Positions 4,552 to 26,397 of a DNA stretch of 26,397 bases are shown here, in pieces. This DNA comes from Anaerolineales bacterium UBA6128 (GTDB lineage: Bacteria; Chloroflexota; Anaerolineae; UBA1429), in assembly GCA_002423325.1 (NCBI GenBank), contig DIVQ01000020.1, positions 1,888 through 28,284 of the forward strand, given 5' to 3'. The stretch's first letter is position 1. Each line of letters begins with the position of its first letter. The notes below the pieces were generated by a model that worked only from the letters and a program-made list of their open reading frames with translations, made no database searches and had not been told where the DNA came from. The position numbers and the translations under genes were made by a program.

Positions 4552-5820
4552 TCAGGCGGTTGGCTCAGCCTCTCGCTGCTCGAGAATCGGCGTCACGATG
4601 CCCTGCGGGACCCCCGTCGTAAAGTTGGCCAACCCGGCGGCATAGCTGATCGCGCGCGGCTCGCCCTCCACCTCGATCACGATGACCGTGTCGATCGGGT
4701 TAAGCACCTTGGCTGGCAGGTTCTTCAGGAACAGACGGTCGCCGTTCTGCTCAAAGGCCACGTCGTCGCCCGTCTCCAGCATGTGCACCGACTGGACGCG
4801 GTTGGCGAAGCGGCTGAAGGTCGCCTCGCGGCCTGGCCAGCGTTCCGTATGCGCATAGACACTGCTGCCCTTGACCGTGAACGGTCCCCACATCGAGCCC
4901 AGTTCGGGCGCGCGTGTGGTGCCATACACCGAGGCGCCGTTCTTCTCCAGCCACGCCCCCACCTGGCGCAGAATCTTGACAGAGGCCGTGGGCACGGTCC
5001 CGTCGGCCTTGGGGCCGATATTGAGTAAAAAGTTGCCGCCGCGCACGCTGCACTGCACCAGCGTCTTGACCACACGCCAGGGGCTCTTCCAGGCAACATC
5101 TCGTGCGCTATAGCCCCAGTTCTCGTTGAGCGTCATGCACGCCTCCCAGGCGCGGCCCTCGCCCTCGGGCTTGATCTCCTGCTCGGGCGTGCCGAAATCC
5201 TCCGGCGTCTGGCTGCGGTTGTTGATCAGGATGCCCGGCTGCAAGTCGCGCGCCATGGCATTCAACGCCTCAGCGCGCCAGTCCTCGGCCGACCCCGGCC
5301 AACCGCCGTCGTACCACAGGATGTCGATCTTGCCATAGTCGGTGCAGAGTTCGCGCACCTGCGCGTGCACATAGTCCGCCATGGCCTTCCAGCCCTCGGG
5401 GTCCTTGGCCGCGCCGGTAAAGCTGGCGGGATAGCGCCAATCGAGCAGCGAGTAGTACAGGCCGACGGGCATGCCTCCGCGGTGACAGGCCTCTACATAC
5501 TCGCGCACCAGATCGCGCTTGGGGCCGAGTTTGGTGGCCGTGAACTCGGACACTTGGCTATCCCACAACGAAAAGCCATCGTGATGTCGGGTCGTGAGCA
5601 CCATGTATTTCATCCCGGCTGATTTGGCCAGGGCCACCCATTCATCCGGGTCGTAGCGCTTGGCGGTGAACTTGTCCGCGTAGGGCGCGTACTCGTCGTG
5701 CGGGATGTGCTCCTGGTACATCACCCACTCGCCGCGCGCCAGCACCGCATAGACGCCCCAATGGATGAACATCCCGAAGCGTGCCTGCTTCCACCACTGC
5801 AACCGATCGACGCAATCCAT
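4552..5820 (-). CDS. alpha-L-fucosidase, glycoside hydrolase family 29 (422 aa)
   Basis: The N-terminal WWKQARFGMFIHWGVYAV, HHDGFSLWDS and a GH29-like catalytic core. ATG at 5820-5818; TGA at 4554-4552. Confidence 0.85.
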   Translation of the reverse strand: MDCVDRLQWWKQARFGMFIHWGVYAVLARGEWVMYQEHIPHDEYAPYADKFTAKRYDPDEWVALAKSAGMKYMVLTTRHHDGFSLWDSQVSEFTATKLGPKRDLVREYVEACHRGGMPVGLYYSLLDWRYPASFTGAAKDPEGWKAMADYVHAQVRELCTDYGKIDILWYDGGWPGSAEDWRAEALNAMARDLQPGILINNRSQTPEDFGTPEQEIKPEGEGRAWEACMTLNENWGYSARDVAWKSPWRVVKTLVQCSVRGGNFLLNIGPKADGTVPTASVKILRQVGAWLEKNGASVYGTTRAPELGSMWGPFTVKGSSVYAHTERWPGREATFSRFANRVQSVHMLETGDDVAFEQNGDRLFLKNLPAKVLNPIDTVIVIEVEGEPRAISYAAGLANFTTGVPQGIVTPILEQREAEPTA

Positions 5821-5910
5821 GTCCCTGCCCCCCCCTTCGTATCACGTCTACCCAGCTATGCTAGCGCGGAACGGGAGGCTGTCAACCACGCCTCCGCGGC
5901 ACCGCTGGGC

Positions 5911-5938
5911 TTGACGCCTGGGTGCCCGCCTCTACAAT
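5911..5938 (+). promoter_or_regulatory. sigma70-like promoter for zupT: TTGACG (5911-5916), 16 nt, TACAAT (5933-5938)
   Basis: Near-consensus hexamers with a 16-nt spacer, about 60 nt upstream of zupT ATG 6000. Confidence 0.45.
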
Positions 5939-5999
5939 ACCACGCAGCGATCGCGACGCGCGCCCGGTTGGGCGTGACCGCGCGTCCACAGGAGGTCTC

Positions 6000-6794
6000 A
6001 TGCTCACCTGGCTTGCCAGCCTGCCCCCCGTGGTTCAGGCGCTGTGCGCCACCCTGTTCACCTGGTTCGTTACCGCGATGGGCGCCCTCCCCGTCTTGTT
6101 CACCAAGACGGTCAGTGACAAGCTGCTCGACACCATGCTCGGCCTGGCCGCCGGCGTGATGATCGCCGCCAGTTTCTGGTCGCTACTGGCGCCCGCCATC
6201 GCGATGTCGAACGGCTCGTGGGCACCCGCGGCCGTCGGCTTTCTGCTGGGAGGCGTGGTGCTGCGCATCATAGACGTGCTGCTGCCGCACCTGCACCCAG
6301 CCGGTGCGGAGGTGGAGGGCCTGCACACCTCCTGGCGCCGCACCACGTTGCTTGTGCTGGCCGTCACGCTGCACAACATCCCCGAAGGCCTGGCCGTAGG
6401 CGTGGCCTTCGGCGCTGCGGCCAGCGGCATTCCCGGCGCCGACCTGGCCGGCGCCATCGCGTTGGCCATCGGCATCGGCCTGCAGAACTTTCCCGAGGGC
6501 ATGGCCGTGGCCATGCCGCTGCGCGGCGAGGGACTGTCGCGCCGCAAAGCCTTCATGTGGGGGCAGTTTTCGGGCATGGTGGAGCCAATCGCCGGCGTCC
6601 TGGGTGCCTGGGCCGTGCTCACGATGCGCTCGCTGCTACCCTACGCGCTGGCCTTTGCGGCGGGCGCCATGATCTTTGTAGTCGTGGAAGAGCTCATCCC
6701 CGAGGCGCAGAGCAAGGGCAACTCGCACCTGGCGACCGCCGGCGCGATGCTCGGCTTTGCAGTCATGATGATCCTGGACGTCGCCCTGGGCTGA
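6000..6794 (+). CDS. zupT: ZIP-family zinc transporter ZupT (264 aa from [10 protein letters not shown])
   Basis: AGGAGG RBS at 5990-5995. Eight predicted TM helices; [10 protein letters not shown] and [10 protein letters not shown] are ZIP signatures. The upstream part of track ORF 5922-6794 is unlikely to be translated. Confidence 0.85.
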
Positions 6795-6820
6795 TCCAGA
6801 CGTCCCACGGGAGGTGCGGA

Positions 6821-8968
6821 ATGGCCACGCCGAAACCAGAGCTGCTCACCAACGCGCACCTGTCGCTCGCGTTCGAGCCGACCACGGGCGCGCTGCTCAG
6901 CATCCGCAACGCCCACTCCGGCGGCGAAATGCTGCGCGCTCGCAGCGCCCAACGCGGGCCGTTCGCCATCTACCACCGGTTCCACAGCCCCTACGCCGAA
7001 CTCGGCCCCGATACCTCTGCGCACCGCGCCCACACGGAGCCGGCCGACATCGCCGGCGCCGTCTTCAGCCCCGCGACGGCTCTCCCGGCGCGCTTCGCGC
7101 GCACTGCCACGCCCGACGGCGAGACGCTCAGCGTCACCTACTCAGACGCCAACGGGCAATGGCGCGCCCAGCTGACCGTGGCGCTCCCGCGCGACCAGTC
7201 CACCAGCCGATGGGGGCTACGGCTCACCAACCTGGGCACCGAACCGGCCGACTATCTGGGCGTGTTCCCGCTGTTGCCCGGTGTCCGCCTGGGAAACAGA
7301 CGCCGCAACCGGATGATGGTCGCCAACAACGCCGGCTACATCACGCCATTATGGGCGACTCGCGGCGGCGTCTATGGCGATGCAGCGCAGGTCGGCATGC
7401 AGTGGGGCTGCGTCTTTGATGACGATCCCGCCGGCGCGCACGATGCCCTCGCGTTCATCGTGCGCGACCCCGATCTCCGACGCAAGGCGATTCTGTACCA
7501 GCGCCCCGACATCGCTGTGCGCTACTATCCGCCACGCACGCTGCAGCCGGGCAAGAGCGTGACATTCCCCGATGTCGACCTGCTGGTCTACACGGGTGAC
7601 TGGAAGCCGGCCGCGCAGGCTTACCGCGCCTGGTTCGAGCCAGCCTTCCCGCAACGCCCGCTGCCCGGCTGGGTGCGCAACCTCACCAACTGGCGCGGGC
7701 GCTGGTTCTGGCGGCGCGGCCAGGAAATCCCGCCCGAGTACACCGTCGCCGAGACCGTGGCCGACCACCTGACGAGTTTTCGAGAGCTCCCCGACGTCTG
7801 CCGTGGCGGACCGGGAACGCTGTACGAGTACGCGTTCTGGGGGCACGGCTGCATGGGCAGGGAACGCTGCGGCCGCACCCAGGTGCACACCGACGGTGAT
7901 TATGTCATCCGCGAGGACCTGGGCGGAGCCGAGGCCTTGCGTGACGGCATCGCCGCGCTGCATGCGCGCGGCGAACGCTTTCTCTTTTACGTGGAGGCCT
8001 ACCTCTGCCCCAAAGAGAGCGACCTCGTCCGCCACGGCCCCGGCCTGGAGTGGCAGGTGATGCACGCCGACGGCGGCACCGCCGGCCCCTACGACAGCGA
8101 GGGCAAGTGGGTGCACATGTGCCCCGGTGCAGCGGGTTGGCAGGACCACCTGGCAGAATCGTGCGCGCGCCTGCTGCGCGAGACTGGCGCCGATGGCGTA
8201 CGCTTGGATTCGCTCGGCTTTTACGGCTTTCCGTGCTACAACCCGGCGCACCAGCACGCAAACCCGTGGGACTATAACGCGTGGGTGATGACGCTGCTGG
8301 ACAAGGTGGCGCGCGCCACGCGCGCCGTCAACCCCGACGCGTACCTGATGACCGAGGCCGGCCCCGACTTTTTCTCGCATCACTTTGATGGCGCCCTGGC
8401 CTCGCCCTCGGGCCCCGGGCGCATCGCCGTCAGCCGCGATGTGGCCCCCATGCGGATCGCCGTGCCCGGCTACGCGCTGGCGGTCTACAGCGCCGCGGGA
8501 CCGGTGGCGGCGTCGCTCATGGGCTACCCGGGCGGCTGCGGCGGCCGCAACTTGGACGCGCGCTTCTACGAGCTCGACCGGCTCTGGCGCACGGCATCGG
8601 CGCCGGTCTATCCGATCGTGCGCTGGGGCGATGCCGCGCACGACAACCCCACAGCCAGCCGCGCGGACGTGGCCCTGCGGCGCTTCTCCCAGGGCGAGGT
8701 GGACGTAGTGGTGGGCGCGCGCCCGCGCTATCTGGACGACTACCCGCACGATCCGCCCCCCAACGATTGGCTGCGCAACACCAACGTGGCGCTCAAGCGC
8801 AACCGCGTGACCATCGAGGTGCGCGTGCGCCACGCAGGCTGCGCAACGCGGCGCGTAGAGCTGTGTGACGTGCTTCGCCAGCGAACGCGCATAGTGCCCT
8901 TCCGGGTCGAGGGGGATGAGGTGGTGGTCGAGGTGGACGCGAACTGGTTCTGGCTGCGGCTGGCCTAG
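6821..8968 (+). CDS. hypothetical 715-aa protein, possibly a glycoside-hydrolase-like TIM-barrel enzyme (GH-H/amylase-like motif GADGVRLDSLGF)
   Basis: GGGAGGTG RBS at 6808-6815, ATG 6821 (MATPKPELL). The track ORF 6218-8968 shares this frame but its upstream part overlaps zupT and is rejected. The GVRLDSLG (region-II-like Asp) and LMTEAGPD motifs suggest a glycosidase; the function is not assigned. Confidence 0.65.
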   Translation: MATPKPELLTNAHLSLAFEPTTGALLSIRNAHSGGEMLRARSAQRGPFAIYHRFHSPYAELGPDTSAHRAHTEPADIAGAVFSPATALPARFARTATPDGETLSVTYSDANGQWRAQLTVALPRDQSTSRWGLRLTNLGTEPADYLGVFPLLPGVRLGNRRRNRMMVANNAGYITPLWATRGGVYGDAAQVGMQWGCVFDDDPAGAHDALAFIVRDPDLRRKAILYQRPDIAVRYYPPRTLQPGKSVTFPDVDLLVYTGDWKPAAQAYRAWFEPAFPQRPLPGWVRNLTNWRGRWFWRRGQEIPPEYTVAETVADHLTSFRELPDVCRGGPGTLYEYAFWGHGCMGRERCGRTQVHTDGDYVIREDLGGAEALRDGIAALHARGERFLFYVEAYLCPKESDLVRHGPGLEWQVMHADGGTAGPYDSEGKWVHMCPGAAGWQDHLAESCARLLRETGADGVRLDSLGFYGFPCYNPAHQHANPWDYNAWVMTLLDKVARATRAVNPDAYLMTEAGPDFFSHHFDGALASPSGPGRIAVSRDVAPMRIAVPGYALAVYSAAGPVAASLMGYPGGCGGRNLDARFYELDRLWRTASAPVYPIVRWGDAAHDNPTASRADVALRRFSQGEVDVVVGARPRYLDDYPHDPPPNDWLRNTNVALKRNRVTIEVRVRHAGCATRRVELCDVLRQRTRIVPFRVEGDEVVVEVDANWFWLRLA

Positions 8969-16908: not shown

Positions 16909-18819
16909 CTAGATCTCGCGCCGGCCCAGTTCCATCGCCAGCCCCAGGTAGCCGAGAGTGGCCTCACTCACCTGTTCCAGCGCCACATACTCGTCGACCA
17001 CGTGGGCCAGCCACTCTTCCCCGGGGCCAAAGCCCAGGCACCACACACCCGCCGTGGACAGGTGCCCGCCATCAGTCGTAAACTTCCAGACGCCCACGTC
17101 CAGAGCGCGCCCAAGTGCGCACTCGGCGACCTGCTGCGCATGCAGCAGACGCGGATCATCAGGCGCCACCACAAAGGAGGAGAATGCGCTCAAGGGCGTA
17201 CGCACCAGGCCTGTGTAGCTCACCACGGGGCGCTTGGCCGGCGCGGCCGTGGCCACCACGCCGGGATCGCAGGTCTCTGCCAGCAGGCGATCGACCAGCG
17301 CCTGCGCTTGCTCCAGCGTCTCACCGGGCACGTTGCGCCAGTCGAGATGCACCACCAGCTCGGAAGGGATGACGTTGCTGCTCGTCTGGTCGATGCGGCT
17401 CAGCGTCGGCGCTGCGGTGCTGGCGCCGAAATCGGGATGTTGCGCCATGGGCGCCTCTTGCAGCGCCAGCAGGAAACGCGCCATCGAATAGTAGGGGTTG
17501 ATCGCGCGCTCAGGCGCACTGGCATGCCCCGAGCGCCCGCGCCAGGTGAGCACCAGATCAAAGCGCCCGCGGTGGCCGCGACGCAACGCGTTGCCGGAGG
17601 GCTCGCCGATAACGGCCAGATCAGGGTGCAACCAGGTGAGCAGGTGCTGCATGCCAAAACCGCCCGCCTCTTCGCCCACCACCGCCGCCACATAAACGTC
17701 ACCCGCCGGCACCAGCCCCGCCTGGCACATCAGCCCGCCGGCGCAGACTTGCGCGGCCAACGCCCCCTTGGTGTCCGTGGCGCCTCGTCCCCACAGCCGT
17801 CCGGCGCTGATCTCGCCGTCGAACGGCCCGTGCTCCCAGCGCGAGACGTCGCCCGGGTCTACAATGTCCATGTGCGCGTTCAGACAGGTGGTCAGACCAT
17901 CACCGCCGCGCACACGCCCGACCACGTTGCCGATCTCGTCGCGCCACACATCGTGGTAGCCCAGCGCCAGCATCTCGGCCTGCACCAGGTCGGCCACCTC
18001 ACGCTCCTGACCCGACAGGCTGGCCTTGCTGACCAGCCGCTGCGCCAGGCCGTACAGGCCCTCGCGCGCCCCATCCACAAGCGCTCGCAACTCCCCTGAC
18101 ACTGACCCTCCGTCATCGTTCATGACTCGCCCCGCGCGCTGCTCTGTCGCGTCAGCACGCGCTGCGCCGCTGCCGCGCCCGCGTCGTGGGGGCGGGGCCA
18201 CGTCGATCAGCTGGTAGCCATAGCTGTTGATCACCTCGGTCTCGCCGACGCGCGTGATGCGTTCTGCGTCCAGGCGATACACATGCGTGTGCCCGTGCAG
18301 CAGATAGCGCGGCTTGAACAAGCGAATGAACCAGTGCAGCGCCGGGAAGCCCTGATGGCACAGATCCTCGCAGTCGTGAACGCCACGAGGGGGCGCATGC
18401 GTCACCAGAATGTCGAGCGCTCGTCCGTGGACCATGCGGTTCCAGAGCAGCCTCGGCACCATGCGCCACATCTGCAAACGCATGCCCAGGTCGCTGTACT
18501 GGTGCGGCCCGGGGCGGTAGCGAATCGAGCCCTCCAGCCCGCCGATCAGCAGGCCGTTCTGGCGTACCACCCTCCCATGCAGGTTGGTCCCCCCTTCAGG
18601 CTCCACCTTGATGTCTTCGTGCCCGAAGCGTCGCTGTACCGCGTTGTGGTTGCCAAATACGTACAAGAGCGGCTTGTTCAATACCGAGACGATAAACTCC
18701 ATATAGTCGAAGGGCAGGTCGCCGCAGCTCACTATCAGGTCGACGTCCTTGAAGCGCGTTGCTGCAACCGGACTGTAGACCAGCTCGTGGACAGTATCGG
18801 CGACGGCCAGGATCTTCAT
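16909..18819 (-). CDS. single 636-aa ORF fusing an N-terminal calcineurin-like metallophosphoesterase (aa 1-~210) to a C-terminal M20 peptidase/deacylase (ArgE/DapE/YgeY-like, aa ~233-636)
   Basis: MPP motifs: SCGDL, GNHN and GHTH. M20 motifs: HMDIV, GRGATDTKG and VGEEAGG. The two are joined in-frame by the linker PPPRRGRGSGAARADATEQRAGRV, with an internal Met at 18123. Confidence 0.7.
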   Translation of the reverse strand: MKILAVADTVHELVYSPVAATRFKDVDLIVSCGDLPFDYMEFIVSVLNKPLLYVFGNHNAVQRRFGHEDIKVEPEGGTNLHGRVVRQNGLLIGGLEGSIRYRPGPHQYSDLGMRLQMWRMVPRLLWNRMVHGRALDILVTHAPPRGVHDCEDLCHQGFPALHWFIRLFKPRYLLHGHTHVYRLDAERITRVGETEVINSYGYQLIDVAPPPRRGRGSGAARADATEQRAGRVMNDDGGSVSGELRALVDGAREGLYGLAQRLVSKASLSGQEREVADLVQAEMLALGYHDVWRDEIGNVVGRVRGGDGLTTCLNAHMDIVDPGDVSRWEHGPFDGEISAGRLWGRGATDTKGALAAQVCAGGLMCQAGLVPAGDVYVAAVVGEEAGGFGMQHLLTWLHPDLAVIGEPSGNALRRGHRGRFDLVLTWRGRSGHASAPERAINPYYSMARFLLALQEAPMAQHPDFGASTAAPTLSRIDQTSSNVIPSELVVHLDWRNVPGETLEQAQALVDRLLAETCDPGVVATAAPAKRPVVSYTGLVRTPLSAFSSFVVAPDDPRLLHAQQVAECALGRALDVGVWKFTTDGGHLSTAGVWCLGFGPGEEWLAHVVDEYVALEQVSEATLGYLGLAMELGRREI

Positions 18820-19579: not shown

Positions 19580-20494
19580 ATGACTCAGGAGCAGGTGTGG
19601 CGCGTCGAGGAGTCCGCTGAGCGGCTTGACCGCTACGTCGCTGCGCACTGCCCCCAACTGACGCGGTCGCGGGCACAACGCCTCATCCGCGAGGGGCGTG
19701 TGACGGTCAATGGCGCCACCGTGACGCCCAGCTACCTGCCGGTGCCCGGCGACCTTGTGCAGGTGAGCATCCCGGCGCCCGCATCCCCGACGCCCCAACC
19801 CGAGGCATTGCCCCTCGAGATCGTGTTCGAGGATCGTCATTTGCTCGTCGTGAACAAGCCTGCCGGACTGGTGGTACATCCGGCGCCCGGGCACCCCTCC
19901 GGCACACTCGTCAACGCGTTGCTGGCCCATCGGCCGGAGGTCAATGCAGCCGATCTCGACCCGACGCGTCCCGGCATCGTCCATCGTCTGGATCGCGACA
20001 CCTCCGGTCTGATAGTGGTGGCCGCCAACCGCGAGGTGCAGGCCGCCCTGCAGGCCCAGTGGAAGTCGCGCAAGATCGTCAAGCGCTATCTAGCCCTGGT
20101 CTACGGCCGCGTCGAGCCACCGCAGGCCACCATCGACGCGCCCCTCGGACGCGACCCCGCACATCGCCAGCGCATTGCCGTCCGCGAGAGCGGCGGGCGC
20201 GCCGCGCGCACCAGCTATCAGGTGCGCGAGCATCTCGCGCAGGCCACATTGCTGGAGGTGCTGCTCCACACCGGACGCACACACCAGATCCGCGTGCACC
20301 TTGCGTCGGTCGGCTATCCGGTCGTCGGCGATCGGGTCTATGGGCCGCGGCGCCCAACGATTACAGCGCCGCGCCAGATGCTGCACGCCTGGCGCCTGTC
20401 CTTTACGCACCCGGTCACGGGCGCGCTGCTGGCGCTCGAGGCGGACCCGCCGCCCGATTTCGACACGTTGCTGCAATTGCTGCGTGCGACCTGA
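19580..20494 (+). CDS. rluD: 23S rRNA pseudouridine synthase, RluA family with an N-terminal S4 domain (RluD-like)
   Basis: S4 domain (LDRYVA...RSRAQRLIREGRVTVNG); the HRLDRDTSG catalytic motif; HTGRTHQIRVH. It starts 4 nt after the lspA stop. Confidence 0.8.
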   Translation: MTQEQVWRVEESAERLDRYVAAHCPQLTRSRAQRLIREGRVTVNGATVTPSYLPVPGDLVQVSIPAPASPTPQPEALPLEIVFEDRHLLVVNKPAGLVVHPAPGHPSGTLVNALLAHRPEVNAADLDPTRPGIVHRLDRDTSGLIVVAANREVQAALQAQWKSRKIVKRYLALVYGRVEPPQATIDAPLGRDPAHRQRIAVRESGGRAARTSYQVREHLAQATLLEVLLHTGRTHQIRVHLASVGYPVVGDRVYGPRRPTITAPRQMLHAWRLSFTHPVTGALLALEADPPPDFDTLLQLLRAT

Positions 20495-20518
20495 TCCGAA
20501 CGCCGAGCCGCCCACAGA

Positions 20519-20542
20519 GCGGACGGCCGGCCGCGCCTTTTT
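20519..20542 (+). terminator. rho-independent terminator after rluD: GCGGaCGGCC/GGCCGCGC stem then CTTTTT
   Basis: Read directly; the T-run overlaps the -35 of the next promoter. Confidence 0.5.
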
Positions 20543-20568
20543 ACAGCCCGTGCGGTTTGCGCTACACT
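20540..20568 (+). promoter_or_regulatory. promoter candidate TTTACA-17-TACACT for the DUF362 gene pair
   Basis: Read directly; 37 nt upstream of ATG 20605. Confidence 0.35.
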
Positions 20569-20604
20569 GTGCGGGCAAGACGTCGAACCTATCGGAGGGC
20601 ACTG

Positions 20605-21828
20605 ATGACGGACAAAGAGTACCGCGTCCGAGCGGTACGCTGCGATCACCTCACCGAGGACGAACAGGTCTACCAAGCTCTACGCCGCGCCACCGATCCT
20701 CTCGATCGCTCCTGGGATGTGCTGACGCGCGCCAAGCGCATCACCGTCAAGTTCAACCAGGCCTGGGCGCCCGAGCGCAGGGTTGTGATGGACGGCCAGT
20801 CGCAGGAACTGGTCAGTGAGAAGGTGGCCCGCGCCGTCCTGCGCTTGCTGCGCGAGCGCACCAGGGCCAACATTGCCTGTGTCGAGATCTCGACCGGTAT
20901 GCGTTATCCCGCGCAGTTCGAGAGCTTTATGACGCTGCTGCCCGTGTTGCGCGAGTTCGATGTCCCAGTGATCGACGGCAACCGGCCGCCCATGCGCGTC
21001 TGCCAGGTCCCGGGCGGCGGCAGCATGTTCAAGCAGTACACACTGCCCTCGTGCGTCGTCGACACGGACGCCTTCATATCGGTCTCCAAGCTCAAGAACC
21101 ACCGCTTTATGGGCGTCACCGCCTGTCTCAAGAACCTGTTCGGCCTGCCGCCGCTCGAGCCTCTGGGGCGCTATCGCGGCTATTTCCACCACTTTATGCG
21201 CCTGCCGAACGTGCTGGTGGACCTGGGTCAGATGGCGCGGCCCGCGCTCAACATTGTGGATGCGCTCGTGACGCAGGCGGGCTCGGAATGGCACGGACAG
21301 GGCCGCGTCAGCGATACGCTGATCGCCGGTGACCACGTTATCGCCACCGATGCCTGCGCCGTTCACCTGATGGGCTATGACACACGCGCCGACTGGCCCA
21401 CCGAGCCCTTCGGCAGCGACAACAACTGGCTGATGATCGCCGAACGTTGCGGGTTCGGCACGGCGCGTCTGGAGGACGTCGACTTTCGGTCCGAGGTGCA
21501 GGCGCCCATCGGCCAGTTCTTCCGCGAGGAATGGGTCCCGCGAGCGCGGCAGATCAGTTGGCGCCGCACCATGTCGCAGCAGGCGCTCTATTACCGCGAC
21601 CACCCCGAAGAGTTCGCCCAGTATGCGGGCGAGTACATGCTGCTGCAGGACCGTCAGGTCGTCTGGCACAGCCGAGACAGCAACCCCGGTCAAAGCCGCA
21701 CCGCCCTCTCGGCACAGAACGAGGACAGCGGCATGTGGATGAAGTACGTCGATCCCGATGAGGCCGAGGGAGAACACTATGAGGTCTATGAGCGTGCGCT
21801 CAGTCACCTCGACGAACTCGGCCTGTAG
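20605..21828 (+). CDS. DUF362-domain protein, paralog A (407 aa), with a ~100-aa C-terminal extension
   Basis: GGAGGG RBS. The DUF362-like motifs are KLKNHRFMGVTACLKNLFGLPP, NIVDALVTQAGSEWHGQG and IAGDHVIATDACAVHLMG. The track ORF 20059-21828 has an untranslated-looking upstream part. Confidence 0.7.
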   Translation: MTDKEYRVRAVRCDHLTEDEQVYQALRRATDPLDRSWDVLTRAKRITVKFNQAWAPERRVVMDGQSQELVSEKVARAVLRLLRERTRANIACVEISTGMRYPAQFESFMTLLPVLREFDVPVIDGNRPPMRVCQVPGGGSMFKQYTLPSCVVDTDAFISVSKLKNHRFMGVTACLKNLFGLPPLEPLGRYRGYFHHFMRLPNVLVDLGQMARPALNIVDALVTQAGSEWHGQGRVSDTLIAGDHVIATDACAVHLMGYDTRADWPTEPFGSDNNWLMIAERCGFGTARLEDVDFRSEVQAPIGQFFREEWVPRARQISWRRTMSQQALYYRDHPEEFAQYAGEYMLLQDRQVVWHSRDSNPGQSRTALSAQNEDSGMWMKYVDPDEAEGEHYEVYERALSHLDELGL

Positions 21829-21901
21829 TGTGGAACGCGTGGCACCAAGCAGGGGCCGCTGAGCCTCTGACATATCAAGGTTTGGGGGAGTCAGCCGTCA
21901 G

Positions 21902-23125
21902 ATGACCGCAAAACACGATTACCGCGTCCGCGCAGTGCACTGTGACCACTTGGCCGATGAGGAGACGATCTACCAGTCCCTGGTGCGCGCCACCGATCCG
22001 CTCGACGCGGCTTGGGCCAAACTCGAGACCGCCAAGCGCATCGGAATAAAGTTCAACCAGGACTATAACGTCCTGCGTGTCTTTGAGAGCAACTATCAGG
22101 AGCTTGTGAGCGAACCGGTGGCGCGCGCCGTGTTGCGCCGGCTGCGTGAGCGCACCAGCGCGGAGCTGATCTGCTCCTCGATCAGCGTCTTTCGCAAGGA
22201 ACAGTCTCACGAGCCGGACGCCTCCGAGCATCTCGGCCAGTTGCTGCGCGAGTTCGGCGTGCGGTTCGTGGCGGGCGACCTGCCCCCGCACAGCACGGTA
22301 CAGGTGCCCGGCGGCGGGCAAATGTTCCGCCAGTACCTCCTGCCCACCGAATCCGTCGATGTTGACGCCTTTATTTCGGTCGCCAAGATGAAGAACCACG
22401 CCTTTATGGGCGTCACGGCCTGCCTCAAGAACCTCTTTGGCCTGATGCCCATGGAGCCGCACGGCCGCGCGCGCCAGTATTACCACCACCTGGTGCGCAT
22501 GCCCTACATGCTGGCCGACATCGGACGTATCTTTAGCCCGGCGCTCAACATCGTCGATGGCCTGGTGGGGCAGGCCGAGCGCGAGTGGGGCGGCCAGGGG
22601 CGCATCGGCAACTGCCTCATCGCCGGCGACAATGTCATTGCTACCGATGCCTGCACCGCGCACCTGATGGGCCACGATCCCGAGACCGACTGGCCCAACG
22701 AGCCCTTCCTGCGCGACCGCAACGCGCTCAAGACCGCCGCTGAGGGCGGCTTTGGCAGCGTCAACCTGAACGAGATCGATTGGCAGTCAGAGGTCGTCAG
22801 CCCGGTAAACCAGTTCTTCTGCCAACAGGTGGACTCATCCGAGACCACCATCAGTTGGCGACGCACGACCTGCGAGCAGGCGCTGTATTACCGCGACCAT
22901 CGCGAGCAGTTCGCCCAGTACGCCGGTGAGTATATTCTGCTCTACAAGAACAAGGTGATCTGGCACAACACGAACAGCAACTTTGGGGGCAGCCGTCGCG
23001 ACCTGGCAGCTGATGACCCGACCAGCGCGATCTTTATGAAAAAGGTCGATCCGGAGGAGGCGGAGGGCGAGCACTTTGAGGTCTACGAGCACACGCTCGA
23101 GCAGATGGAGGCCCTGGGCCTCTAG
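21902..23125 (+). CDS. DUF362-domain protein, paralog B (407 aa), about 55-60% identical to paralog A
   Basis: GGGGGAG RBS. It has the same motif set (KMKNHAFMGVTACLKNLFGLMP, NIVDGLVGQAEREWGGQG, IAGDNVIATDACTAHLMG) and the same C-terminal tail (..KVDPEEAEGEHFEVYEH..LGL). Confidence 0.7.
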   Translation: MTAKHDYRVRAVHCDHLADEETIYQSLVRATDPLDAAWAKLETAKRIGIKFNQDYNVLRVFESNYQELVSEPVARAVLRRLRERTSAELICSSISVFRKEQSHEPDASEHLGQLLREFGVRFVAGDLPPHSTVQVPGGGQMFRQYLLPTESVDVDAFISVAKMKNHAFMGVTACLKNLFGLMPMEPHGRARQYYHHLVRMPYMLADIGRIFSPALNIVDGLVGQAEREWGGQGRIGNCLIAGDNVIATDACTAHLMGHDPETDWPNEPFLRDRNALKTAAEGGFGSVNLNEIDWQSEVVSPVNQFFCQQVDSSETTISWRRTTCEQALYYRDHREQFAQYAGEYILLYKNKVIWHNTNSNFGGSRRDLAADDPTSAIFMKKVDPEEAEGEHFEVYEHTLEQMEALGL

Positions 23126-23248
23126 TCGTCGCAAGTCGCAGCCGTCACCCACGGCTCTGGCAGGCTTCTGCGCAGAGCAGCTAACGGATAGCCCAAATGG
23201 CCGCAGCCAGGCTATGGCGAGCGATCAGGGCATTTGAAGGGAGACCAG

Positions 23249-23938
23249 ATGAAAGCCAAGCGCGTTATTCTGAGCCTGTTTGGTGTGGCAGCCGGCGCCG
23301 CCGGCGCCTACCTGGCCGCCCAGGCCTACCGCGAGGCCAGGGCCAAGTGCCCACCCTTTCGGCGCACGACGTACCGCACCAGCAGCGAGCTGATCGAGGA
23401 TTTCCGCTTCTTCTGGGACAATCCGGCCGTGCTGACCGAGATGCGTGCCAATACGCGCATCACACCCGCTTTTGGCGAAAAGCTGATGCTGGCCGTCAGC
23501 GGGGTGCGCGGCTGCCGATTCTGCGGCAGCCTGCATAGCCGCACAGCAGAAGCGCTGGGCGTCTCGCAGGCCGAGGCCAGCTCGCTGTTGCGCGGCGAGA
23601 TCGCCGGCGGCACCGTCGAGGAGGCCCCCGCCGTCTTTTTCGCGCAGCACTATGCCGAGAACGACGGCGAACCTGAGGCCGATATGGTGCGCACCCTCGT
23701 GCAGTCCTACGACGAACGCACCGCCCAGGACGTGCTCAACTATTTGCGTCTGTTTGACATGGCCAACCTGCTGGGCAACACCCTGGACGCCCTGTTCAGC
23801 CGCTGTCTTGGCAAGCCCTCGGCCGACACCACGCTCAAGGACGAGTTGGCGATCGTAGCTCTCGCGACGTTTGGTATCGGCCCCCTGCTGCCTGTGCTGG
23901 TGGCCCGCGCAAAACTGCAGGGCATCGTGCAGCTGTAG
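23249..23938 (+). CDS. carboxymuconolactone decarboxylase / AhpD-like family protein with an N-terminal signal/TM segment and a C-terminal hydrophobic segment
   Basis: GAAGGGAG RBS. The CMD-family motif GCRFCGSLHS (CxxC...H). The track ORF starts 5 codons earlier at a TTG. Confidence 0.65.
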   Translation: MKAKRVILSLFGVAAGAAGAYLAAQAYREARAKCPPFRRTTYRTSSELIEDFRFFWDNPAVLTEMRANTRITPAFGEKLMLAVSGVRGCRFCGSLHSRTAEALGVSQAEASSLLRGEIAGGTVEEAPAVFFAQHYAENDGEPEADMVRTLVQSYDERTAQDVLNYLRLFDMANLLGNTLDALFSRCLGKPSADTTLKDELAIVALATFGIGPLLPVLVARAKLQGIVQL

Positions 23939-23963
23939 CGCGCCCGCCCTGCTCGTGGCCCCA

Positions 23964-23992
23964 GGCCAGCCTGACATCAGGCTGGCCTTTTT
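23964..23992 (+). terminator. rho-independent terminator: GGCCAGCCTGA-ca-TCAGGCTGGCC plus TTTTT
   Basis: 11-bp perfect stem followed by a T5 run, 26 nt after the CMD-family gene stop. Confidence 0.65.
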
Positions 23993-24006
23993 GCCTAGTC
24001 CGATAC

Positions 24007-24035
24007 TTGACATGTGTCTGATGACATGTTATAGG
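24007..24035 (+). promoter_or_regulatory. promoter candidate TTGACA (24007-24012), 17 nt, TATAGG (24030-24035) for the ArsR-ATPase operon
   Basis: A consensus -35 and a 4/6 -10. Two copies of the palindromic hexamer ACATGT (24010-24015, 24024-24029) lie within the spacer. Confidence 0.4.
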
Positions 24036-24036
24036 T

Positions 24037-24048
24037 GAGCAATTGCTC
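24037..24048. promoter_or_regulatory. perfect 12-bp palindrome GAGCAATTGCTC between the -10 and the RBS; candidate ArsR/SmtB operator
   Basis: Read directly. ArsR-family repressors bind inverted repeats that overlap the core promoter of their own operon. Confidence 0.35.
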
Positions 24049-24066
24049 AACTATAGGAGTGTTGAG

Positions 24067-24399
24067 ATGGGAGATTCGTGGCAGAGCGCGCAGGGCACCG
24101 GACAGGCCGGCTTGCTGGACGAAGGACGCGCAGCCGACCTGGCCGAGATTTACGGAGCGCTCGCCGACCCCACGCGCCTCAAACTGATCGCCGCCCTTGC
24201 CGAGTCCGAGTTGTGCGTCGGCGATCTGGCGGCCCTGCTGGGTATGTCCATCTCGGCGATCTCACACCAGCTGCATCTGCTCCGGCGGATGCGCATCGTT
24301 CGGCGTCGGCGCGAGGGACGGCACATCTACTATGCGCTGGACGATGAGCATGTTTTGGCACTGTTCCGCGCGGGCCTGAGCCACATCGAGCACACGTAG
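24067..24399 (+). CDS. ArsR/SmtB-family metalloregulator (110 aa from MGDSWQ..), with a predicted alpha5 Zn/Co-type site
   Basis: AGGAG RBS at 24055-24059. The HTH is LCVGDLAALLGMSISAISHQLHLL. The C-terminal DxH-x10-H-x2-H (DDEHVLALFRAGLSHIEH) matches the CzrA/SmtB alpha5 metal site. The alpha3 site, ELCVGD rather than CVC, appears degenerate. Confidence 0.85.
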   Translation: MGDSWQSAQGTGQAGLLDEGRAADLAEIYGALADPTRLKLIAALAESELCVGDLAALLGMSISAISHQLHLLRRMRIVRRRREGRHIYYALDDEHVLALFRAGLSHIEHT

Positions 24400-24439
24400 A
24401 GATACTGACACCAAGCCAGACGATTTGCGGGTGAGTACC

Positions 24440-26397
24440 ATGGCAGACAATCAGACTGACGAACATACCTTTCACATCAGCGGGATGGACTGCCCCGACT
24501 GTGCCGCGAGCCTCGAAAAGGCGGTTCGCGCCCTGGCCGGCGTGGCCGATGCCAGCCTGAGCTTTGCGACGGCCAAGCTTACCGTCAGGCCCGCGTCGGG
24601 CGCCGACGTCACTCAGCGCGTGGTCGCGCTGGCCGAGTCGCTCGGCTATGTCGCCACGCCGGAGGGCAGCGCTCCCAGCGACGCGCCAGCCGGAGCGCTG
24701 GCCTGGCTGGCCACGCATCGCCGCAATGCCCTGATGCTGCTGGGCGCTCTGCTGCTCGTCGCGGGTTTGGTCGCCCGCGGATTCGGCGCCCCGGCGGTGC
24801 TTTCGCGTGTGCTGTACGGGCTCGCCATCCTGTCCGGCGGCGTTTATGTGGCGCGCGCCGGTTTGATCGCGCTGGTCAAAACGCGCAGCCTGGACATGAA
24901 CGCGCTGATGACCCTCGCAGCCCTCGGAGCCATGGCCGTCGGCGAGTTCGAGGAAGGCGCGGTGACGGTACTGCTCTTTTCCTTCGGCGAGTTGCTCGAG
25001 TCCTACTCGATGGACCGCGCGCGCAATGCGCTGCGCGCCCTGCTCAAGCTCGCCCCCGCCGAGGCCACCCGCCTCAATACGCCGCACCAGCACGACGACG
25101 AGGACGATGACGACGACGGACACCACGCCGACGTCGCCTGCTCGCTCGAGCCCGGCGGCTGCTGTGCCTGCAACGCGACCAGCGCCGAGGAGCGCGTGCC
25201 GATCGGCGCGCTGCGCGTCGGTGACCGCATCCTCATCCGACCGGGCGAGCGGGTCCCAATGGACGGGCGCATTCTGGAGGGGCGCTCGGGGCTGGACCAG
25301 TCGCCCATCACGGGCGAATCGCTGCCCGTCGACAAGCGCGAAGGCGACGAGGTCTACGCCGGCAGCGTCAACGGCGCGGGCGCCCTGAGCGTGCAAGTCA
25401 CACGGCTGGCCGAAGACAACACCATCGCGCGCATCATCCGCCTGGTGGAGGAGGCGCAGGCCCAACGCGCTCCCTCGCAACGCCTGGTGGACCGTTTTGC
25501 GCGCGTCTACACGCCCATCGTCATCGGCCTGGCGCTGTTGATCGCCGTCATCCCGCCACTGGTCGGTTGGGGCGCGTGGTCAGAGTGGGTCTACCGCGCG
25601 CTGGTGCTGTTGGTGATCTCGTGCCCGTGCGCGCTGGTCATCTCGACGCCCGTAACGATTGTCAGTGCGCTGGCCCGCGCGGCCCGCGCGGGCGTGCTCA
25701 TCAAGGGGGGACGCCATCTTGAGGCACTGGGAGATCTGCGCGTGGTCGCCTTTGACAAGACCGGCACCCTGACGCGCGGCCAGCCAGTGGTCATCGGTGC
25801 CACCTGCGAGTTGGACGGTCAACACAGCGCGTGCGAGCGCTGCGATGACCTGGTAGCCCGCGCCGCCGCCCTGGAGAGCCGCTCCGAGCACGCCCTGGCA
25901 CGTGCGGTGTTAGCCTGGGCCGATGCGTTGGGCGTGTCTCAACGCTATGCCCCTGCGCAAGAGGTTACTGCCTGCGCCGGGATGGGCATCGAGGGGCTGG
26001 TGGACGGTCACAGGGTGCGCATCGGCAACCATGCCTTTTCGCATCGCGAAGGCGAGGCGCACGTGCCGTTGTGCGCGGGGGTCGAAGAGGCTGAGCGCCA
26101 GGGACAGACGGTGCTCGTGATCCACGACGAGACCGCCGACGAACGCTGCTACCTGGCCGTTTCTGACACACTGCGCGAGGGAGTTCCCGCCATGCTGCGT
26201 GGCCTGACGCAAGCCGGGATCCGGCACACCGTGATGCTCACCGGCGACAACACCCACATCGCCGAGACAATCGCGCGCGAGGCCGGCATCGACGAGGTCC
26301 GCGCCGGGTTGCTGCCGGAGGACAAAGTGGGGGCCGTCGAGCAACTGGGGGCGCAGCATGGCGCACTGGCCATGGTGGGGGATGGGGTGAACGACGC
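24440..26397 (+). CDS. P1B-type heavy-metal translocating ATPase (Zn/Cd/Pb-type), 3'-truncated by the window edge
   Basis: N-terminal HMA domain GMDCPDC; a transmembrane CPC motif; DKTGTLT phosphorylation site; GDGVNDA. There is no stop to the end of the window, so it is absent from the ORF track. GGGTGAG RBS before ATG 24440. Confidence 0.9.
   Translation, partial: MADNQTDEHTFHISGMDCPDCAASLEKAVRALAGVADASLSFATAKLTVRPASGADVTQRVVALAESLGYVATPEGSAPSDAPAGALAWLATHRRNALMLLGALLLVAGLVARGFGAPAVLSRVLYGLAILSGGVYVARAGLIALVKTRSLDMNALMTLAALGAMAVGEFEEGAVTVLLFSFGELLESYSMDRARNALRALLKLAPAEATRLNTPHQHDDEDDDDDGHHADVACSLEPGGCCACNATSAEERVPIGALRVGDRILIRPGERVPMDGRILEGRSGLDQSPITGESLPVDKREGDEVYAGSVNGAGALSVQVTRLAEDNTIARIIRLVEEAQAQRAPSQRLVDRFARVYTPIVIGLALLIAVIPPLVGWGAWSEWVYRALVLLVISCPCALVISTPVTIVSALARAARAGVLIKGGRHLEALGDLRVVAFDKTGTLTRGQPVVIGATCELDGQHSACERCDDLVARAAALESRSEHALARAVLAWADALGVSQRYAPAQEVTACAGMGIEGLVDGHRVRIGNHAFSHREGEAHVPLCAGVEEAERQGQTVLVIHDETADERCYLAVSDTLREGVPAMLRGLTQAGIRHTVMLTGDNTHIAETIAREAGIDEVRAGLLPEDKVGAVEQLGAQHGALAMVGDGVND

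Follow-up and report, generated by a model that had tools for sequence, protein, structure and literature searches.

A tandem pair of DUF362-subfamily proteins with a conserved C-terminal module and a predicted LarA-like core in an Anaerolineales genome

Genes A and B are adjacent genes for DUF362 proteins of 407 amino acids (aa) in the genome of Anaerolineales bacterium UBA6128. They lie within a 26,397-nucleotide (nt) stretch of contig DIVQ01000020.1 (positions 1,888 to 28,284), which is referred to below as the window. Both proteins belong to a DUF362 subfamily that carries a conserved C-terminal module of about 100 aa and that is not described by any curated model or paper found. The first ~300 aa of each protein are predicted to adopt the fold of the cofactor-binding N-terminal domain of LarA-type racemases, and the alpha/beta module appears to stand in place of the LarA substrate-binding C-terminal domain, where it would close over the active site and bind substrate. 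We favor, with a probability of roughly 0.4, a reading in which A and B are two LarA-like specialised enzymes for hydroxy-acid or sugar-acid-like substrates, with the subfamily-specific module as a lid, and are not obligate partners. Such an enzyme would isomerise, epimerise or oxidise/reduce a hydroxy-acid or sugar-acid-like metabolite and would use a bound pyridinium-type or metal cofactor. A, B, and a putatively membrane-anchored AhpD/CMD-like protein encoded downstream appear to be expressed as one operon.

A DUF362 subfamily defined by its C-terminal module

Gene A (20605-21828) and gene B (21902-23125) lie in tandem on the + strand. Their products align over the full length with 230 of 409 positions identical (56%; BLASTP, E 3e-165), and the genes are 65% identical as DNA. 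Protein A is a divergent copy and protein B is close to the family consensus; residue numbers given here follow B. The initial annotation had described adjacent same-strand genes for 407-aa DUF362 proteins of about 55-60% identity with a set of characteristic motifs. The coordinates and the identity hold, and the quoted motifs are present in A and B on invariant columns of the family. Pfam DUF362 (PF04015, gathering threshold 24 bits) matches aa 70-253 of both proteins, with 92.4 bits in A (20812-21363, + strand; E 5.2e-26) and 88.6 bits in B (22109-22660, + strand), and positions 18-199 of the 200 in the hidden Markov model (HMM) are covered. The match in B holds K164-N-H166, K176-N177, and H195-H196. 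The G+C content at third codon positions (GC3) is 0.83-0.84 in the + frames of A and B; long antisense open reading frames (ORFs) opposite them have the mirror-image GC3 pattern and are shadow ORFs. Public gene calls on the 41.9-kb source contig, a metagenome contig in ENA, agree with those for A, B, and the downstream CMD gene. A and B are probably soluble cytoplasmic enzymes.

Curated resources offer little on these proteins. The subfamily falls outside all NCBIfam models; the nearest, Npun_F2552, has a cutoff of 500 bits and gives only 38-46. Sequence searches of the PDB gave two chance-level matches with B alone (E 0.63 and 1.9) and no match with either a 70-sequence profile or a C-terminal profile. 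The earlier statement that DUF362 lacks an established function agrees with the literature on DUF362, PF04015, and DUF5678, in which no functional study was found, and database names for close relatives, where given, are only ‘DUF362 domain-containing protein’ or ‘hypothetical’.

The C-terminal module spans aa ~306-407 of A (21520-21825, + strand) and aa 306-407 of B (22817-23122, + strand). It is conserved not only in the A/B pair but also in sets of 70-114 homologues. As initially claimed, it lies beyond ordinary DUF362: it is absent from distant representatives, whose match to the profile stops at about position 300. Generic DUF362 proteins (PF04015) are ~250-400 aa long and are often fused to 4Fe-4S ferredoxin domains, whereas A and B carry the ~100-aa module and have neither a ferredoxin domain nor a Cys cluster. 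Neither protein has a Fer4 match or a CxxC or Cys-rich motif, and the absence of a Cys motif rules out a Fe-S/ferredoxin-type DUF362 identity. Cysteines occur in B at positions 14, 91, 174, 238, 251, 307, and 324, and Cys14 alone is invariant in the family. On the Cys/His ligands that the initial annotation asked about, no Fe-S motif was found; Cys14, H166, and H195 are invariant.

Members of the subfamily are numerous and similar in length. A search with B returned 2,192 clusters at 90% identity; the best 120 of these, almost all 404-424 aa long, align to 96-100% of B at 58-80% identity. When 1.84 billion representatives were searched with a profile, 5,248 DUF362-like clusters at 50% identity were matched; E<=1e-30 was reached by only 109 of them, ~25 of which are full-length at ~400 aa. 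Because distant DUF362 proteins match only to about position 300 and because so few clusters reach this level, the extension marks roughly 2% of DUF362 diversity. In GTDB, with one genome per species, 319 stretches encode a subfamily relative. The best 80 of the 319 are all metagenome-assembled genomes, mostly of Chloroflexota (Anaerolineae, Caldilineales, Thermoflexus, Litorilinea, and Ktedonobacterales), and also include Gemmatimonadota, Latescibacterota, one Planctomycetota, and one bin labelled Hadarchaeota. The Candidatus Hadarchaeota-labelled bin (L056; CAZUNO010000009.1, a 99-kb contig) contains a 58%-identical full-length member, and the other matches are all bacterial; its archaeal label reflects either horizontal transfer or a binning/labelling error.

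Conservation extends through both parts of the protein. Among 114 sequences from 87 loci, 54 positions are invariant, and 12 of these are inside the module (W319, R321, Q326, W354, H355, S364, R365, K380, D383, E388, E390, and Y395), charged and aromatic residues being prominent among them. A DUF362-wide polar core (K50-x-N52, D155, K164-x-H166, K176-N177, R191, H195, R199, D206, D219, E228, and D249) is shared by 50 subfamily members and 23 representatives without the module and is present in both A and B; in this respect the subfamily resembles generic DUF362. In the AlphaFold model of B, the module is composed of a long helix, a short helix, a beta-hairpin, a short helix, a strand, and a final helix.

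A profile search with the C-terminal ~100 aa alone, as the initial annotation had recommended, returned only a sub-threshold match to DUF5678 (PF18929; 14.7 bits against a threshold of 23.2). Full-length A and B score 12.0 and 12.3 bits, with the weak match in A at aa 335-358. Of 20 subfamily members, 12 give the hairpin match at E<=10 (3.7e-4 at best), and in these ‘YAGEYILLQDGEVxWH’ aligns to the first 24 of the 49 HMM positions and to no others. Unlike DUF5678, the module is twice as long, is always fused to DUF362, and matches half of the model. The short, seemingly stand-alone matches in the representative search are fragments or chimeras and do not make up an independent domain family. 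Throughout a large DUF362 subfamily the extension is part of the normal architecture; it is no peculiarity of the A/B locus. The possibility, raised earlier, that it is a standard part of a characterised subfamily is borne out in the first respect but not in the second.

Predicted core fold and comparison with LarA

An AlphaFold2 model of B was built from a 70-sequence alignment, with a mean predicted local distance difference test score (pLDDT) of 92.9 and a predicted template modelling score of 0.93. Its top 16 Foldseek matches in the PDB are all LarA or LarA homologues (5HUQ, 6C1W, 8EZF, 2YJG, 9EIA/9EID, the malate racemase 6D6Z/7S91, and 9Q3J/9Q3K), with E values of 2.7e-5 to 2e-2, probabilities up to 1.00, and 240-280 aligned columns; there was no other significant match. 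DUF362 and DUF2088 (LarA) are both members of Pfam clan CL0471 (PMC11770544). DUF362 is, in other words, not an orphan fold, and this clan link was missed in the initial annotation.

LarA sequences taken from PDB entries were compared with the subfamily by profile-profile alignment in hhalign. With a narrow profile, the aligned stretch is the active-site motif only, KMKNHAFMGVTACLKNL of B on GFIESHFFAGFSGGRKSV of LarA (E 0.16). With a broader 74-sequence DUF362 profile, residues 6-258 of B align to residues 25-270 of LarA (E 1.8e-4, probability 49%). These alignments are weak; both place H166 on LarA His174 and K176 on Lys184 with an identical 10-residue spacing, and H166 and K176 are invariant in the subfamily. 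In LarA, Lys184 tethers the nickel-pincer nucleotide (NPN), whose phosphate is bound by Arg75 and whose nickel has His200 as a ligand; His108 and His174 act together as acid and base (PMC11770544). NPN is also the cofactor of known LarA homologues that have a single catalytic histidine (PMC12611868).

The LarA-like fold in B covers only the N-terminal domain in the hhalign comparison. After aa ~300, B has no meaningful LarA alignment, and the LarA C-terminal domain is absent. In LarA, the substrate-binding residues Tyr294, Gln295, and Lys298 belong to that domain, and in A and B the whole of it is replaced by the unrelated small module. The isolated module has no fold match in the PDB, to LarA or to anything else.

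Copy number, gene neighbourhoods, and the local operon

Each of the two genes has its own orthologues. Those of A (P0050 and P0053) are 72-73% identical to it and those of B (P0001 and P0002) are 79-80% identical, and short contigs of relatives keep the order RluD-A-B (L009) or A-B-CMD (L011). In a neighbour-joining tree, A groups with the L009 sequence and B with the L011 sequence, each with 100% bootstrap support, and an A+B clade occurs in 6 of 100 replicates. As A and B have separate orthologues and are not sister branches, the duplication is old. A recent private duplication absent from relatives, which the initial annotation had considered, does not fit the 72-80% identical orthologues or the RluD-A-B-CMD order in relatives; recent local duplication is ruled out by the 65% DNA identity, the separate orthologues, and the tree. 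Further loci of the window lineage were sought in a metagenome scan with protein A, but the relatives recovered were all 52-55% identical to it.

Copy number varies widely across the family. Two or three tandem same-strand copies are present in 28 of the 87 non-redundant loci and a single copy in 59, some of the latter being cut by contig ends. A large Anaerolineae clade resolves into four paralogue groups, alpha, beta, gamma, and delta (bootstrap 100, 100, 100, and 86), in a fixed order with alpha upstream and beta, gamma, or delta downstream. The arrays seen are alpha-beta, alpha-gamma, beta-gamma, alpha-delta, and alpha-beta-gamma. Some loci have one type only: an upstream-type copy in L088 and downstream-type copies in L037, L044, L053, L048, L079, and L086. 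Separate duplications occurred outside this clade, for example in the L075 pair (100% support). Every tandem copy among the 114 sequences retains the invariant polar set. A departs from the family at R271S, D311V, E325Q, and R366T, residues that are identical in the other ~112 of 114 members, and its L009 orthologue is changed at the same four positions (S271, I311, Q325, and H366); A retains all core invariant residues. Since A is altered at four otherwise invariant positions and B is consensus-like, the two may be specialised isoforms with different substrate or stereochemical preferences, not obligate partners.

Neighbourhoods were compared across the same 87 loci. Genes of the enolase-superfamily MR_MLE type and/or of the DHDPS family occur within 6 kb in 29 of them (16 of 28 multi-copy and 13 of 59 single-copy loci). 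Most of these neighbours directly adjoin the DUF362 genes and run in the same direction, and the association is seen in several clades that are not related to one another and in several gene arrangements. Among the MR_MLE products, which resemble galactonate, mannonate, or gluconate dehydratases, one scores above the NCBIfam cutoff for galactonate dehydratase; the DHDPS-family products are most similar to 5-dehydro-4-deoxyglucarate dehydratase. Sugar-acid 2-epimerases are among the characterised LarA homologues, e.g., gluconate 2-epimerase members (PMC11770544), and the activity of some LarA members on sugar acids parallels these neighbourhoods. No universal partner gene was found across the 87 loci.

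The fullest cluster contains genes for an aldo-keto reductase, a URO-D-like protein, an MFS protein, copy 1, copy 2, a DHDPS-like protein, an MR_MLE protein, a PhnP-like MBL protein, and a fructosamine-kinase-like protein. The cluster occurs in Anaerolineae at L022, L027, L047, L055, L060, L062-L064, L066, L068, L070, L078, and L090 (e.g., L062:3000-14200). Its kinase is fructosamine-kinase/APH-like, and a PFL-like glycyl-radical enzyme is sometimes added. It looks like an undescribed catabolic pathway for a sugar derivative. Nickel-pincer-dependent aldo-keto reductases were reported in 2026 (PMC13524815), and the aldo-keto reductase of this cluster may merit attention in that light. In Caldilineales-like genomes, a 562-aa fusion of a BPD_transp_1 permease with a UbiA prenyltransferase (L002:3737-5428, L003:3938-5626, and 11 other loci) is encoded downstream of genes for an NMT1-type binding protein and an ABC ATPase and upstream of single-copy DUF362 genes. 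An unannotated gene of 411-417 aa that lies two genes upstream at L002 and L003 was considered as a hidden paralogue and ruled out, as it is unrelated.

In the window, a candidate sigma-70-like promoter (TTTACA-17-TACACT, 20540-20568, + strand, 9 of 12 matches) lies in the 110-nt gap after an RluD-like gene. It is the sole match within 20300-24500 (4.2 kb), where shuffled sequence gives 0.7 +/- 0.9. The site proposed earlier as the pair's own promoter is therefore present and plausible, but by count it is not above chance. A Shine-Dalgarno sequence (GGAGG, 20594-20598, + strand) is placed 6 nt before the ATG of A, a Shine-Dalgarno-like GGGGGAG (21884-21890, + strand) precedes the ATG of B, and no terminator is predicted in the 73-nt gap between the two genes. 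The CMD/AhpD-like gene (23249-23938, + strand) encodes 229 aa from the ATG at 23249 with GGGAG upstream. Its ORF can be extended to a TTG at 23234; the ATG with GGGAG matches the public gene call. The initial assignment of an AhpD/CMD-like gene after the pair is upheld by Pfam CMD (25.8 bits against 23), TIGR00778 (28.8 against 27.8), and the motif GCRFCGSLH, which contains CRFC (CxxC...H). The protein also has hydrophobic segments at both ends, the N-terminal one a helix, and may be membrane-anchored, which would be atypical for AhpD/CMD.

An intrinsic-terminator-like hairpin (23963-23998, + strand; 11-bp stem with 8 GC pairs, followed by a T-run) lies 3' of the CMD gene. As no terminator was found before 23963, A, B, and CMD are probably made as one transcript, and they probably form one operon, with a Shine-Dalgarno sequence before each gene and an order that is kept in L009 and L011. 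A CMD orthologue with 79% identity occupies the same position in L011. Across the 87 loci, a CMD homologue is present in four and adjacent in only two; the CMD link is specific to the window lineage.

Other genes in the window belong to separate units. Genes for an ArsR/SmtB-type metalloregulator and then a heavy-metal P-type ATPase with HMA, E1-E2 ATPase, and HAD domains occupy 24043-26397 (+ strand), the second being cut off by the window end; the strong hairpin (23963-23988) lies between the CMD gene and ArsR, and the two genes are a separate unit. A 636-aa fusion of an N-terminal calcineurin-like metallophosphoesterase and a C-terminal M20 peptidase with a dimerisation domain, an unusual combination, is encoded at 16909-18819 (- strand). 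Farther upstream, in a region ~12-16 kb from A/B, there is an alpha-L-fucosidase (GH29-type) gene (4552-5820, - strand). A ZIP-family transporter gene is found at 5922-6794 (+ strand), and a 916-aa ORF with DUF6259/GH66-like similarity at 6218-8968 (+ strand); the latter is the longest reading and overlaps the ZIP ORF. The carbohydrate-active genes at 4552-8968 are not linked to the A/B pair.

Competing explanations and significance

Several observations weigh against LarA-like enzymes of hydroxy-acid or sugar-acid-like substrates. The relationship between LarA and B is distant (12-16% identity, a template modelling score of ~0.35, and hhalign probability of 49%), and neither A nor B has a DUF2088 Pfam match at E<=1. 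LarA Arg75 aligns to Q65/E66, where no basic residue is conserved, with K50 and N52 in the preceding loop. LarA His108 aligns to R98 in a variable loop with low pLDDT, where no His is conserved, and the LarA His200 loop falls in a 13-residue alignment gap. No larA, larB, or larE homologue was found within 10 kb of the 87 loci or in the window; larC was not searched (the LarA and LarE queries were checked against PDB entries, and LarB was the 7MJ0 chain). Two thirds of the loci, the window included, are without sugar-acid genes nearby. Other clades have neighbours of quite a different kind: an ABC system that includes the permease-UbiA fusion, along with a class IV aminotransferase or an amidase; a sulfatase, in one arrangement together with MR_MLE; or MscL with MBL and GAF kinases. 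The neighbourhood counts are also not phylogenetically independent. Because His and Lys are retained while the Arg75, His108, and His200 features are without clear counterparts, the core is best described from the model as a fold like the LarA N-terminal domain in which the LarA cofactor site is retained only in part.

A more specific idea is that A and B are true NPN enzymes, with NPN on K176, nickel held by H195, and H166 as the single acid/base, that racemise or epimerise 2-hydroxy or sugar acids. The fold matches LarA-type structures only, H166 and K176 fall on His174 and Lys184, and sugar-acid dehydratase neighbours parallel the gluconate 2-epimerase members. H195 is invariant throughout DUF362 and lies 19 residues after the Lys, compared with 16 in LarA; it could substitute for His200 as nickel ligand. 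The motif, the fold, and the single-His LarA homologues that use NPN (PMC12611868) make nickel-pincer cofactor use in the A/B family possible. The case is weakened because counterparts of Arg75, His108, and His200 are missing or unclear and because no larA, larB, or larE gene lies near the 87 loci, and the LarA C-terminal domain is absent. Moreover, the K/H motif is common to all DUF362 proteins, including ferredoxin-fused proteins of anaerobes, and may for that reason serve a different ligand. We consider this specific assignment unlikely. A bolder proposal is that the subfamily constitutes a new enzyme class, in which a LarA-type domain and a previously unseen lid, with a K176-tethered nickel-pincer/pyridinium cofactor, carry out sugar-acid epimerisation/isomerisation that feeds enolase-superfamily dehydratases in Chloroflexota catabolic clusters; this appears quite improbable at present.

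The copy-number data address another option, namely an obligate heteromer of A and B, either an enzyme or a binding complex, in which A is a modified, partly degenerate subunit. Their tandem, same-strand arrangement 73 nt apart with probable co-transcription, the A-then-B order in relatives, the fixed order of well-supported upstream and downstream groups in the large Anaerolineae clade, and the loss from A of four near-invariant residues with its core intact are all in keeping with such a complex. Yet 59 of 87 loci have one copy, others hold only upstream-type or only downstream-type copies, arrays of three exist, all copies have a complete catalytic-looking residue set, and the five array combinations suit interchangeable isoforms better than a fixed pair. 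Since single copies of either type and mixed arrays occur, an isoenzyme family fits better than an obligate heterodimer. The heterodimer suggested in the initial annotation is accordingly unsupported in its obligate form, which we regard as doubtful; a facultative hetero-oligomer of A/B-family copies is possible. A role of the pair with the downstream AhpD/CMD-like thiol protein in redox metabolism or detoxification, with a metal or redox site formed by Cys14 and the His cluster and perhaps a tie to ArsR and the heavy-metal ATPase, draws on the A-B-CMD structure kept in L011, the AhpD-type CxxC...H motif, the invariant Cys14, H166, and H195, and the ArsR and P-type ATPase genes that come next. 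This role is very unlikely, as CMD adjacency is confined to the window lineage, a strong terminator stands between CMD and the ArsR and ATPase genes, A and B lack CxxC or Fe-S motifs, and the family-wide context points elsewhere. Specialised LarA-like enzymes with a lid module remain our preferred reading of A and B.

DUF362 is a large family (>5,000 clusters matched at 50% identity) without an assigned function and is sister to the nickel-pincer racemases. The subfamily described here is a tractable way into it, with 54 positions invariant across phyla, the LarA His/Lys motif, and a unique extra domain, and in about a third of loci the surrounding sugar-acid catabolic clusters suggest concrete substrates. 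If A and B turn out to be ordinary hydrolase-like or binding proteins, the finding would be a well-annotated pair of hypothetical proteins only. If the subfamily were a new enzyme class as outlined above, it would provide the first function for any DUF362 protein and would place nickel-pincer chemistry in a second branch of CL0471, and the alpha, beta, gamma, and delta paralogues would give different stereochemical specificities. If A and B are enzymes with a LarA-like or new cofactor, they would give DUF362 a function and add a step to the carbohydrate-acid metabolism of mostly uncultured Chloroflexota and Gemmatimonadota.

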